Positions 2 through 3,659 are shown, numbered from the stretch's first letter. The stretch is DNA of 7,206 nt from Candidatus Helarchaeota ASGARD archaeon Hel_GB_A (GCA_005191415.1 SUPS01000213.1:1-7206); one strand, 5' to 3'. The notes: generated from the sequence alone by a model not told the origin. Made by a program: numbers and translations.

Positions 2-727
2 GTCATAACAGGTATTCCTGAATATTCAAGGCGTTTTGTAGAACTCATTAATGAATACATCGAAAAATCGCGAAATCGATTACATCAAACGCAAGATAGC
101 TTGAAGAAAACAGTAAAAAAACTCAATAAAATAACACCATCCGAACCACCTGCCCCTGAGGTCTTTGTTTCGGTCGATTCTTACGACGATTGGGGGTTAT
201 ACATCACACCGGACGGAACCCTTTTGAGAATTTGTACCGCTAAATTCCATATAAATCCAAGTGGTGTTAGAATTCAGCGAATTCTTCAATCAATCCCATC
301 TAACACTCTTAATAAATTCATTACAATTGCAAAAAATAAAACATTCCAATATCTCTACACCGCTGATGCCTTTCTCCAACTAATCCACTACTTTAAAGAT
401 AAATTAGATAACTATCAAGTGCTAATATCCTTTTTAAAGGAATGGCGAGATGAAATTTTCGCTAATCTCGAAACCCGCATCACGGAAGTCCCCGTAAATA
501 CCGACTTTGTCATTATGGACGATTCCTTCATCTATCTCTCTATATATGACCCTCTTCACCCTCTCATCATGGGCGGAAAAAAAGTTTCAAACCACCCCAT
601 CATCCAACGATATATTCAAGAATTTGATAGACTTTGGCAAAACGCCATCCCCAGCGACGAATATATCAAAACTATAGATATCGAAGAGGATATCCTTCAA
701 GAACTACGACTTTTACTATTTTTTTAA
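2..727 (+). CDS. hypothetical protein, 5'-partial (frame open to the left window edge); C-terminal part faintly resembles the C-terminal domain of TrmB-type archaeal regulators
   Basis: Frame 2 has no stop from nt 2 to TAA at 725-727. The TTG at 101 in the ORF track is only the first start-like codon. The 33 upstream codons (VITGIPEYSRRFVELINEYIEKSRNRLHQTQDS) read like real protein, so the gene probably starts left of the window. The tail DFVIMDDSFIYLSIYDP...NHPIIQRYIQEFDRLWQNA recalls the end of TrmB-family C-terminal domains; this is recollection-level similarity only. Confidence 0.55.
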   Translation, partial: VITGIPEYSRRFVELINEYIEKSRNRLHQTQDSLKKTVKKLNKITPSEPPAPEVFVSVDSYDDWGLYITPDGTLLRICTAKFHINPSGVRIQRILQSIPSNTLNKFITIAKNKTFQYLYTADAFLQLIHYFKDKLDNYQVLISFLKEWRDEIFANLETRITEVPVNTDFVIMDDSFIYLSIYDPLHPLIMGGKKVSNHPIIQRYIQEFDRLWQNAIPSDEYIKTIDIEEDILQELRLLLFF

Positions 728-741
728 GAAGAAGCTTCAAA

Positions 742-844
742 TGGGCGGGAGGGGATTCGAACCCCCGACCTCTGGGTCCCAAACCCAGAATCTTGACCAA
801 TTTTTATTCTGATAAACCTTATAGCCAGACTAGACTACCCGCCC
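742..844 (-). tRNA. tRNA-Pro (anticodon UGG) with a ~28-nt intron inside the D loop
   Basis: The reverse complement folds as GGGCGGG-TA-GTCT-[D loop]-AGAT-T-CTGGG-TTTGGGA-CCCAG-AGGTC-GGGGG-TTCGAAT-CCCCT-CCCGCCC-A. The anticodon TGG is at 781-779. T8, T33, G37, T54-T55-C56, A58 and G53-C61 are all present. The D-loop region is 38 nt (AGTCTGG CTATAAGGTTTATCAGAATAAAAATTGG TCA) instead of about 10. Removing 28 nt gives a canonical 75-nt tRNA with A14, G18G19 and A21. CCA is not encoded. Confidence 0.85.
797..824 (-). other. non-canonical tRNA intron in the D loop of tRNA-Pro (boundaries uncertain by a few nt because of the CTGG/TTGG repeat at its edges)
   Basis: This is the excess 28 nt between AGTCTGG and TCA of the D loop. 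It contains a small hairpin, TTTAT-CAGA-ATAAA. I could not draw a clean bulge-helix-bulge by eye. Confidence 0.6.
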
Positions 845-883
845 ATTACTGAAGATGGGGCTGAGGGGACTTGAACCCCTGAC

Positions 884-1841: not shown

Positions 1842-1969
1842 GTTCATCTATTAAAATTGTTTAATTTTCAAGTTTTCATTTCTCTTAGATTTAATTTATT
1901 AGATAAATTAATTTCTCGTATAGAATCAAATTTTTCTCCCAAATTATGGTTTGATCCTCATACATAACT

Positions 1970-1978
1970 TTTTTAAAA
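1970..1978 (+). promoter_or_regulatory. candidate TATA-like box for the 5S precursor
   Basis: TTTTTAAAA is centred about 26-28 nt upstream of G2000, the first base of the flanking stem. A second TATA-like element, ATTAAATA (1992-1999), would instead start transcription near 2022 and exclude the stem's 5' arm. The two cannot be distinguished from sequence. Confidence 0.25.
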
Positions 1979-1999: not shown

Positions 2000-2022
2000 G
2001 GTTTAGATTTGCATTGAGGTTC
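2000..2022 (+). other. 5' arm of the processing stem flanking the permuted 5S rRNA
   Basis: GGTTTAGATTTG (2000-2011) is perfectly complementary to CAAATCTAAACC (2169-2180). GCAT (2011-2014) pairs with ATGC (2162-2165). GGTTC (2018-2022) pairs with GAACC (2155-2159). Confidence 0.65.
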
Positions 2023-2028
2023 GTGTCG

Positions 2029-2154
2029 AATTAAGCTCGTATACGTTCTTGTTGGTACTGCAGTGCGAGAGCCTGCGGGAAGACAAGAAAGCTGAACTTC
2101 GGTTCGGTCATAGCTACGAGGTAACACCCGTTCTCATCCCGAACACGGCAGAAT
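2029..2154 (+). rRNA. 5S rRNA, circularly permuted gene order (3' portion 2031-2097, UUCG linker 2098-2101, 5' portion 2102-2154)
   Basis: All canonical archaeal 5S elements are present on the + strand, in swapped order.
- Helix I: GTTCGGT 2102-2108 with GCTGAAC 2091-2097.
- Helix II: TACGAG 2115-2120 with CTCGTA 2036-2041.
- Helix III: CCGT 2128-2131 with ACGG 2145-2148.
- Loop C: TCTCATCCCGAAC.
- Helix V: TTCTTGT 2046-2052 with ACAAGAA 2083-2089.
- Helix IV: CTGCAG 2058-2063 with CTGCGG 2073-2078.
- GTACTG...GGGAAG loop-E-like region.
From memory, the sequence is close to haloarchaeal 5S (..CCCAUCCCGAACACGGAAGAUAAGCC.. and ..GUACUGGAGUGCGCGAGCCUCUGGGAA..). Confidence 0.8.
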
Positions 2155-2180
2155 GAACCCCATGCGGACAAATCTAAACC
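2155..2180 (+). other. 3' arm of the processing stem flanking the permuted 5S rRNA
   Basis: The arm reads GAACC-CC-ATGC-GGA-CAAATCTAAACC and is complementary to 2000-2022 (see the 5' arm). It is followed by a short T-run (2184-2187) that could contribute to termination. Confidence 0.65.
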
Positions 2181-2483
2181 ATATTTTCATTCTTTCAGAG
2201 AGCTAAGAAAATAAATTTACCGAATTATTTCTCTCTTTACTTCTTAACTCCTGATTTTAGTAATGCCAAAATAATTAAAGATCAAACATTTCATAATTCA
2301 CGGTTTCTTTGAATTCATGCGTTGTTTTAATCTAAAAGGTATTTGTTCAGATTCCTTAAAGATAAAAACTTTTGCCACAATTTTTTAATAGAAGGTTAAA
2401 TTTATTCCATTAAATTATAGTAATATGTTTTCCATATCTATAGAAATAGAAATCTACAACTTTCTAGCAATTTGAGTGGATTA

Positions 2484-2499
2484 GGCGTCAATTAACGCC
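2484..2499. promoter_or_regulatory. GC-rich near-palindrome GGCGTCAATTAACGCC abutting a TATA-like box; candidate operator
   Basis: Arms GGCGT (2484-2488) and ACGCC (2495-2499) flank an AATT-centred spacer. It is the only GC-rich block in about 350 nt of AT-rich spacer. It sits directly upstream of TTAAATAA (2502-2509) and 39-54 nt upstream of the ATG at 2538. Confidence 0.3.
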
Positions 2500-2501
2500 A
2501 C

Positions 2502-2509
2502 TTAAATAA
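2502..2509 (+). promoter_or_regulatory. candidate TATA box for the DUF1512-like / zinc-ribbon operon
   Basis: TTAAATAA is centred about 32 nt upstream of the ATG at 2538. This implies a very short leader or a leaderless mRNA. No Shine-Dalgarno-like motif precedes the ATG. Confidence 0.3.
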
Positions 2510-2537
2510 TAATTTCCAGTCGTTCGATGTGAAGTAA

Positions 2538-3659
2538 ATGATGCAATATTATAATGAATGGTCTTGGATTTTTCAAATCATATTTTTAGTACTCTTTATT
2601 GTTATTTTCTTTTATAATCAGCGAATCCAGCTATGGATGATGCAGAAACAAATTGAAGTCGCAGTGCGCGAGTTAGAACAAATGACTAAGGAAGGAAAAG
2701 ATGTTTTAGTGAAGCTAATCAATGAAAGAGGAAAGCCCAAAGAAGATCCGCGTCCAATATTAAATTCCTTACTAGATTTCTTCACTGTGCAGCCAGTAGA
2801 CTTAGATCCCGCAGGGATTATCTATAGGCTTGAGCACATACTAGATGTTAGAAAATCACGTTGGGAACAGCACGTTAAACAAATTGCACCTGCCGCTTCA
2901 CGCGATGTAGCGGCAAATATTGAAGGTACCATTGAAGCTACTTCGGCAGTTAATATGATTTTCAAAATTGTTCGGCATTATCTTCTATTAGGGAAAAAGA
3001 CCAAAAGTCTTATATTGATTATGCAAATTCAGATGCAATTGCCTTTAATTATGCAAATTGCCAAAGCTATTTTCAAAGCCTTAAAATCCTTTAGTCAAGG
3101 CATTCCTATTGGGGATAGCATCGGTCCACTGGTGGTGACCACCCTCGTTCATGATTACAAAAAACAATCCCCTCCAAAAATTACACGCGATTACACAAAG
3201 GATATTACTCTATATGAAATGGAAATTGAGGGACGAAATGTGTTCATTATTAGAGCAACAGGACCTGGTGCGACTGTCGGAAAACCTGGTGAAGCCATTA
3301 AAAAATTGGTAGAAGAAAAAGAAGGTAAAATTGCGCGGCTCATTATGGTGGACGCTGGATTGAAATTAGAAGGTGAAAAAACTGGGACTGTTATTGAAGG
3401 TGTTGGAGCGGTAATCGGCGGTCCGGGTGTTGAAAAATACAAGATTGAAGAATCTGCAGGTGTGAAATATAGTGTGCCAATGGATGGTATCGTTATTGAA
3501 GAAGGTCAAGAAGATGCCTACGGAACTATGGTAAAAGATTTAGTAAAAAGTGTTCCAAAAGCAATCGAAAAGATTAAAAACGCTATATTGACCCGCACCG
3601 TAGAAGGCGATAATGTTATTATTGCAGGGATAGGAAATTGTTGCGGAATAGGTGATTAA
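2538..3659 (+). CDS. DUF1512-like archaeal protein of unknown function, N-terminally membrane-anchored
   Basis: 373-aa ORF with an N-terminal hydrophobic helix (WSWIFQIIFLVLFIVIFFY). Its size and architecture match my recollection of Pfam DUF1512 (archaeal proteins of about 370 aa). Gly-rich conserved-looking blocks are present: GDSIGPLVV, ATGPGATVGKPGEA, MVDAGLKLEGEKTGTVIEGVGAVIGGPGVEKYKIEE. The family assignment is from memory and was not searched. Confidence 0.8.
   Translation: MMQYYNEWSWIFQIIFLVLFIVIFFYNQRIQLWMMQKQIEVAVRELEQMTKEGKDVLVKLINERGKPKEDPRPILNSLLDFFTVQPVDLDPAGIIYRLEHILDVRKSRWEQHVKQIAPAASRDVAANIEGTIEATSAVNMIFKIVRHYLLLGKKTKSLILIMQIQMQLPLIMQIAKAIFKALKSFSQGIPIGDSIGPLVVTTLVHDYKKQSPPKITRDYTKDITLYEMEIEGRNVFIIRATGPGATVGKPGEAIKKLVEEKEGKIARLIMVDAGLKLEGEKTGTVIEGVGAVIGGPGVEKYKIEESAGVKYSVPMDGIVIEEGQEDAYGTMVKDLVKSVPKAIEKIKNAILTRTVEGDNVIIAGIGNCCGIGD

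Follow-up and report, generated by a model that had tools for sequence, protein, structure and literature searches.

A conserved, circularly permuted 5S ribosomal RNA gene with a bulge-helix-bulge motif at its junction in at least two lineages of Asgard archaea

A 7,206-nucleotide (nt) stretch of DNA from the Candidatus Helarchaeota archaeon Hel_GB_A (GCA_005191415.1, SUPS01000213.1:1-7206), analysed over its whole length and called here the window, carries on its plus strand a 5S ribosomal RNA (rRNA) gene in circularly permuted form. The 3′ two-thirds of the RNA precede its 5′ part, a UUCG tetraloop takes the place of the free ends of a normal 5S, and the permutation junction holds a motif of the bulge-helix-bulge (BHB) type. 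This is a real and conserved gene, present in at least two Asgard lineages, and its permuted order, 5S identity, BHB geometry, conservation and covariation, as well as the coincidence of its predicted ends with the ends of 5S homology, are directly supported. Taken as a whole, the region from about 2000 to 2190 is probably a stand-alone transcription unit of a Helarchaeota-like Asgard archaeon, encoding a permuted 5S rRNA which EndA, the splicing endonuclease, and the ligase RtcB would turn into a circle (coordinates in Table 1). A first-pass annotation of this DNA had already read from it a helix I of 7 base pairs (bp), two of them G-U, with C2097-G2102 closing a TTCG cap, and had placed the discontinuity in loop B, at the junction of helices III and II. 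The sequence does read so, with GCTGAACTTCGGTTCGGTC spanning the cap, and the predicted fold and the ends of the homology match agree on loop B. The word GAAT does occur at both edges as it had noticed (2028-2031 and 2151-2154); these words overlap the end of the central 4-bp helix and the BHB bulges, the one on the 3′ side also reaching two bases into the flanking helix, and are not a duplicated piece of 5S. It was right in taking this DNA (2029-2154) for a permuted 5S and in starting the 3′ two-thirds at 2031, and needs refining at the 3′ end of the RNA, which is most likely G2151 rather than T2154.

Searched with the Rfam 5S model (RF00001), the window yields two partial matches in reversed order, as had been foreseen: 2020-2094 aligns to model positions 43-114 (17.9 bits), and 2100 to about 2152 aligns to positions 1 to about 52, within a 31.6-bit match that is nominally full-length with a 3′ half of unaligned filler. 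Neither match of this collinear model reaches the gathering score of 38 bits, as is expected for a permuted gene, and the suspicion that standard finders would miss it is thereby borne out. Both partial alignments agree with the Rfam consensus at the conserved 5S motifs, and a scan with all Rfam families lists RF00001 alone in this region, one lower-scoring match of the same clan being suppressed. A sequence-only hidden Markov model (HMM) built from 81 canonical 5S genes matched the native sequence at positions 7-52 only (35 bits) and the re-permuted sequence at positions 7-99 (55 bits). Without its cap the re-permuted RNA is 117 nt long in five lineages, equal to the canonical profile length, and free-energy minimisation folds it into the canonical three-armed 5S in five of six lineages, in keeping with the earlier proposal that the two parts can assemble a complete 5S fold. 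The columns of loop A (CAUAG), loop C (CCCGAAC), loop E (GUACU) and the GGGAA motif are invariant across the loci described below. A mirror experiment was built on 36 canonical, non-Asgard 5S genes (35 bacterial, one from Bathyarchaeia): cut after CGG plus three nucleotides in loop B, swapped and joined by a UUCG linker they gave covariance model R2, and in normal order the same 36 sequences gave covariance model R3. R2 matches exactly 2031-2151 over model positions 1-121 of 121 (68.9 bits, E = 2.7e-16), versus a partial R3 match to 2103-2225 only (32.1 bits); at canonical loci the outcome is reversed, with 111-132 bits for R3 and 35-45 bits for R2. Like the HMM and the free-energy fold, this mirror experiment is independent of Asgard sequences, and together with the reversed Rfam matches it upholds the swapped order.

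The BHB motif and the processing stem in the flanks were absent from the first-pass annotation, and they supply a mechanism. Each strand presents a helix on its 5′ side, then a 4-bp helix and then a 3-nt bulge, the archaeal BHB geometry; a 4-bp central helix, two opposite 3-nt bulges and a flanking helix h of more than 2 bp, as strict BHB definitions ask, are all found in the window. When the precursor is folded to minimum free energy, both the 9-bp and the 4-bp helix form, as does the bulge of 3 nt on the 3′ strand, and the energy has a z of -4.1 relative to shuffles. Archaeal BHBs are cut after the second bulge nucleotide, a rule derived from the canonical tRNA intron at 37/38, and the predicted sites are thus 2030^2031 and 2151^2152, with an excised RNA of 121 nt. 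These ends are exactly those of the R2 match. The predicted ligated junction is CACGGCAG-UUAAGC, that is, CCCGAACACGGCAG joined to TTAAGCTCGTATACG, and the resulting loop B (CACGG-CAG-UUAAGC) has the spacing of the Rfam consensus CGG-AAG-UUAAGC; the identical string CGGCAGUUAAGC is found in several bacterial 5S genes. The GAAT repeat also permits a register shifted by 1 nt (helix UGUC/GGCA, bulges GAA and GAA, product 2030-2152 of 123 nt), which is possible in locus L008 as well; only the 121-nt register is kept in all lineages. A second candidate BHB, between the 12-bp stem and the 9-bp helix (internal loop CATT/ATGCGGA), was rejected, having only a 3-bp helix, bulges of 4 nt and 1 nt, and poor conservation.

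The unit appears to carry its own transcription signals. A promoter-like box upstream of the leader stem stands at the same distance in two relatives (L013 and L138). Its distance from that stem predicts a transcript start near 2000, and its role as a promoter is suggested by the usual position of the archaeal TATA box, at about -26. The T-rich stretch of the window includes a T-run at 2184-2187, T-runs occur at the equivalent place in L003, L013, L138 and L061, and the box and the stretch are likely an archaeal promoter and an oligo-T terminator bounding a transcript of about 190 nt.

Table 1. Elements of the permuted 5S rRNA unit in the window
Feature	Position	Strand	Remarks
Promoter-like box AACTTTTTTAAAA (archaeal TATA/B-recognition-element-like)	1966-1978	+	ends 22 nt upstream of leader stem
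Outer leader-trailer stem, 5′ arm GGTTTAGATTTG	2000-2011	+	12 bp, forms a perfect inverted repeat together with 2169-2180
BHB flanking helix h, 5′ strand GAGGTTCGT	2016-2024	+	pairs with 2153-2161
BHB central 4-bp helix H, leader strand GTCG	2025-2028	+	pairs with C2146-C2149
BHB 3-nt bulge AAT, 5′ strand	2029-2031	+	predicted cut 2030^2031
Predicted excised 5S rRNA, permuted order, 121 nt	2031-2151	+	R2 match ends equal BHB-predicted ends
3′ two-thirds of 5S	2031-2097	+	reads UUAAGC...GCUGAAC
Loop B 3′ side and helix II 3′ strand (2036-2041)	start of 2031-2097 part	+	
Helices V and IV, loops E and D included	2046-2089	+	
Helix I 3′ strand GCTGAAC	2091-2097	+	
UUCG tetraloop (DNA TTCG) capping helix I	2098-2101	+	site of free ends in normal 5S
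5′ part of 5S	2102-2151	+	reads GUUCGGUCAUAGC...CCCGAACACGGCAG
Helix I 5′ strand GTTCGGT	2102-2108	+	followed by loop A
Helix II 5′ strand	2115-2120	+	
Helix III and loop C, CCCGAAC included	2125-2151	+	
BHB central helix H, 3′ strand CGGC	2146-2149	+	
BHB 3-nt bulge AGA, 3′ strand	2150-2152	+	predicted cut 2151^2152
BHB flanking helix h, 3′ strand ATGAACCCC	2153-2161	+	
Outer leader-trailer stem, 3′ arm CAAATCTAAACC	2169-2180	+	
T-rich stretch TTTTCATTCTTTC	2184-2196	+	just past trailer stem

Relatives were sought upstream of homologues of the neighbouring DUF1512 gene and with a covariance model of BHB plus 5S built from five loci (R1). The same unit is present in nine further loci, eight on Helarchaeota-type contigs and one in a Candidatus Jordarchaeia metagenome-assembled genome (MAG), L061. 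R1 scores are 156-170 bits for L003, L011, L013, L138, L140 and L143, 108 bits for L006, 88 bits for L008 and 85 bits for L061, compared with only 13-26 bits at canonical 5S loci, and full-length R1 copies were found in L011, L143, L006, L008 and L061. The Jordarchaeia locus was outside the R1 seed and came in solely through a scan of genome contigs with the loop C pattern CCCGTTCYCATYCCGAACACGG, a loop also found in bacterial 5S; among the matches listed were L061, one Bathyarchaeia 5S and at least about 80 canonical 5S genes, the canonical genes serving as controls. The simple motif CATYCCGAAC missed four relatives with a differing loop C, which the covariance model recovered. The DUF1512-linked loci L009 and L014, which have a different gene upstream, gave no 5S with the covariance models, a metagenome scan with a permutation-specific pattern gave three chance matches only (one of them the end of a bacterial 23S followed by a 5S), and a scan of viral contigs gave five chance matches, none confirmed by R2.

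Across the ten loci 94.5% of the cells are paired, and 32 of the 44 pairs have changed on both sides, values reached in none of 500 shuffles; when pairing partners are slid by 1-3 columns, pairing drops to 27-40%. Covariation extends to every one of the nine flanking-helix pairs and to four pairs in the capped helix I, so that the preservation of a tetraloop-capped helix I in relatives, for which the first-pass annotation had proposed to look, is indeed seen. Here the only difference between the window and the close strain L001 is a compensatory change of G-C to A-U in the outer stem, compensatory outer-stem changes are also present in L003 and L138, and the outer stem of L143 is different in sequence and still complementary. 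Strict BHB geometry recurs at the homologous place in nine of the ten loci, with 7-13 contiguous flanking pairs. Among eight relatives the central helix is GCCG/CGGC in most and GCCG/CGGU or CGUG/CACG in the others, the 3′-strand bulge is AGA in eight of nine Helarchaeota-type loci, and the cap loop is UUCG in eight of the ten loci, UUUG in L003 and CUCG in L061. Six loci have a predicted product of 121 nt, and for L008, L061 and L003 the predicted lengths are 124, 123 and 153 nt.

A comparison of the two groups of archaea bears on how the junction is restored. In Helarchaeota-type loci it reads CACGGCAG^U(U/C)AAGC. In the Jordarchaeia locus (L061 5301-5450, minus strand) the motif consists of GGCGUCGUUG/CAGCGACGCC plus CGUG/CACG with bulges AAA and GAA, and its junction CACGGA^AGUCAA would be ligated to CGG-AAG-UCAA, which is canonical. 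The break points thus lie 2 nt apart, yet both restore CGG-NNG-U(U/C)AA. Either the permutation arose independently in the two groups, or the BHB slid along loop B.

Maturation may be pictured as follows. In the primary transcript the leader would pair with the trailer, forming the 12-bp stem, the 9-bp helix and the BHB at the permutation junction; EndA would cut each bulge between its second and third nucleotides (2030^2031 and 2151^2152), and RtcB would join G2151 to U2031, giving a covalently closed 121-nt 5S rRNA with canonical loop B spacing and a helix I closed by UUCG instead of free ends. Since the central helix shares C2146-G2148 with helix III, a refolding step is expected, in which these nucleotides would leave the leader after ligation and re-pair as the base of helix III. 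Asgard EndA is reported to be an (alpha-beta)2 enzyme with an L1 insert and a broad BHB specificity that accepts relaxed motifs (PMC5829648), BHB cleavage followed by RtcB circularisation is an established route for archaeal 16S and 23S (PMC10515664), and two intron-bearing tRNA genes in the same window are counted as support where the enzymes are concerned. The further fate we favour is that the circle itself enters the ribosome, because the cap is conserved, hyperstable and without a known processing signal; archaeal ribosomes have been reported to contain circular 23S rRNA (PMC12918454), a precedent for a circular ribosomal rRNA. The broader proposition, that in Helarchaeales-type archaea and Jordarchaeia the permuted gene is the only 5S gene and the ribosomal 5S is a closed EndA/RtcB circle of 121-123 nt, is offered tentatively, as having a little less than an even chance.

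Several observations weigh against this account. Transcription, cleavage, ligation and final form are all four inferred. The flanking helix of 9 bp contains a mismatch (A2017 x C2160), and of the second flanking helix h′, for which strict definitions ask more than 2 bp, only U2032-A2145 can pair in the window; the 5′-strand bulge opens into the 5S multiloop with no closing helix, and without a real h′ the motif falls under what PMC3978253 defines as the relaxed (hBH-type) form. Central helix and helix III base compete for C2146-G2148, which makes the precursor and mature pairings mutually exclusive. Under loose BHB criteria some candidate appears in 1230 of 2000 shuffles (61%), so that the argument rests on position, helix length and conservation. 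The ten-locus alignment was fitted to the R1 model; a plain MAFFT alignment of seven sequences has 93% pairing and 16 compensated pairs for the mature fold, and 82% pairing in the flanks. Two loci are themselves awkward. In L003 (9651-9682, minus strand) 32 extra nucleotides directly follow the predicted 5′ cleavage site, resembling a duplicated, now diverged copy of the segment that holds the 3′ strand of helix II and the 5′ strand of helix V (there is a second GGTACTG), and the 153-nt product would carry this insertion in loop B. In L006 (9400-9600, plus strand) the BHB leader strand is interrupted by a 31-nt insertion, mostly a perfect 24-nt hairpin (CUAAAUUCGG-CGAA-CCGAAUUUAG), loop C is degenerate (CUUCUCGAAC), and a strict BHB scan of this locus found nothing; L006 may follow a variant processing route or be a decaying copy.

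Such features of L006 would suit the notion that the unit is a relic or a non-ribosomal RNA and that the real 5S is encoded by a canonical gene elsewhere in the genome. This is very improbable, since at ten loci from two Asgard classes compensatory change has preserved every 5S helix and the invariant loop motifs are retained, and the promoter-like box, the processing stem and the T-run are kept as well; a relic would not be so maintained. A collapsed tandem 5S repeat could in principle put a 3′ part ahead of a 5′ part, and the first-pass annotation had named such a misassembly among the findings that would overturn its proposal. The chance of this is negligible: the same junctions occur in the window, in the NCBI MAG L001, in the Logan assembly L002 and in ENA and JGI contigs, and they are shared by diverged relatives in which the genes to either side are unique, so that misassembly is excluded by independent assemblies and diverged relatives alike. 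In addition, a precise tetraloop rather than a spacer connects the two parts, and leader and trailer are mutually complementary.

If the circle were an intermediate only, reopened at the UUCG cap to release a conventional linear 5S, the gene would behave as permuted tRNA genes do, whose circles are reopened at the acceptor end (PMC3978253); circular pre-16S rRNA would be a second parallel. Here that course is unlikely: the 4-nt linker is a conserved, hyperstable cUUCGg in eight of ten loci and looks selected for closure, 5S has no known signal of the RNase P or tRNase Z type, and the circular 23S reported from archaeal ribosomes (PMC12918454) provides a precedent for a circular rRNA in a ribosome. 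Alternatively, the RNA might be cut at the BHB, or trimmed by nucleases, and remain linear and permuted with unjoined free ends in loop B. This possibility agrees equally well with the permuted gene order and the capped helix I, organellar permuted 5S does stay permuted in the final product (PMC4267664), and ligation of the 5S ends is itself a predicted step of the circular route. A linear product is nonetheless quite improbable, as archaeal BHB products are routinely ligated by RtcB, be they tRNA introns, 16S or 23S (PMC10515664), the fold holds both ends together, and a nick in loop B would fall in a protein-binding region of 5S. Moreover, the nucleotide count at the junction is exactly canonical in two lineages whose break points are 2 nt apart, which is most simply explained by a continuous strand. 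The closed circle remains our preferred product.

Permuted RNA genes repaired by splicing machinery are a known class, to which a 5S member is newly added here. In permuted tRNA genes (Cyanidioschyzon merolae and other algae, and Thermofilum pendens; PMC3978253) the 3′ part likewise lies upstream, the termini are likewise joined by a short intervening sequence with a leader-trailer BHB at the junction, and a circle made by endonuclease and ligase, as predicted here, makes the junction continuous; the RNA is a tRNA in those cases and a 5S rRNA, in Asgard archaea, in this one. Circularisation of archaeal 16S and 23S similarly uses a leader-trailer stem with a BHB, EndA and RtcB, and the circle may be functional. 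Those genes, however, are collinear with the mature RNA, and circularisation joins natural ends or adds a few spacer nucleotides, whereas in the present case, with a permuted gene, an internal loop has to be created by ligation. The 23S of Pyrococcus furiosus (PMC7758197) is again an archaeal large-subunit rRNA whose ends are relocated via BHB-dependent circularisation, but its gene has the normal order and the RNA is permuted after transcription, by circularisation and excision of helix 98; here the permutation resides in the DNA and processing would undo it.

Among 5S rRNAs proper, the closest parallel in shape is the mitochondrial 5S of brown algae and stramenopiles (PMC4267664; Rfam mtPerm-5S), which likewise has a closed helix I hairpin with its ends elsewhere and is likewise missed by standard 5S models. 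It differs in being organellar, in having its ends at the three-way junction of the alpha and gamma domains, in lacking a BHB or predicted ligation, and in a product that stays permuted; with a break in loop B that separates helix III from helix II, the present RNA falls outside that family. A circular 5S detected in Sulfolobus solfataricus by circular RNA sequencing (PMC3326292) indicates that an archaeal 5S circle of about 123 nt is possible, although it derives from a canonical gene with its natural ends joined and is a minor species without validation by reverse transcription PCR. In full-text literature searches of incomplete coverage, permuted 5S came up from organelles only (PMC4267664), and permuted or circular 16S and 23S from archaea; 5S is explicitly stated not to be processed by circularisation (PMC12918454), and the three maturation routes described for archaeal 5S involve no BHB (PMC10515664). 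The same searches turned up no archaeal 5S gene in permuted form, in line with the first-pass annotation, which knew of none.

The genomic setting is archaeal throughout. The neighbouring DUF1512 gene (2538-3659) encodes a protein that shares 77-80% identity with its closest named relatives, which belong to Candidatus Helarchaeota (Asgard kingdom Promethearchaeati); contigs of MAG GCA_054386375.1 and of a Logan assembly made independently carry this protein too, and the other genes of the window, HdrB/C-like proteins, a phosphopantetheine adenylyltransferase and others, are typically archaeal. The 5S unit and the DUF1512 gene are on the same strand in the window and in L006, and on opposite strands in L003, L008, L011, L013, L138, L140 and L143. 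The small 5S unit has been inverted during evolution while staying beside the DUF1512 gene. Across the permuted 5S of L001 a spurious 44-residue open reading frame (ORF) is annotated (2490-2624, minus strand, corresponding to about 1993-2127 in the window); annotation pipelines do not recognise the permuted RNA.

Two unusual tRNA-like genes occupy the minus strand of the window and are also near the 5S unit in L003, L006 and L013. The tRNA-Trp(CCA)-like gene (856-1025, about 170 nt) has an insert of about 97 nt after the anticodon loop, with GAUGA and CUGA words resembling C/D boxes, and elicits from Rfam only a weak 'tmRNA' match with a 132-nt gap. The tRNA-Pro(UGG)-like gene (742-844, about 103 nt) carries some 28 extra nucleotides inside the D-loop, a non-canonical intron position, and Rfam covers only model positions 9-63. 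ARAGORN reported zero tRNA in the window despite these two intron-bearing genes. A 72-residue ORF (634-852, plus strand) overlapping both on the opposite strand is almost certainly spurious.

We know of no cellular, that is non-organellar, genome that encodes a permuted 5S, and 5S has been regarded as the sole archaeal rRNA without BHB cleavage and circularisation. If the proposed route is true, permuted genes repaired by splicing would extend from tRNA to rRNA, and this would be the first predicted case of an obligatorily circularised, and possibly permanently circular, 5S rRNA. Should the broader proposition hold as well, ribosome biogenesis in these Asgard lineages would need RNA splicing enzymes for all three rRNAs. 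Because collinear models score them below threshold, permuted 5S genes go unannotated, and the affected MAGs would fail the 5S, 16S and 23S criterion for high-quality drafts; a permuted covariance model remedies this. On the broader proposition, reports that such MAGs lack 5S genes would reflect an artefact of annotation. Asgard archaea are relatives of eukaryotes and central to ideas on eukaryote origin, and in them this locus amounts to a natural experiment on how far the ribosome tolerates changes in 5S topology.

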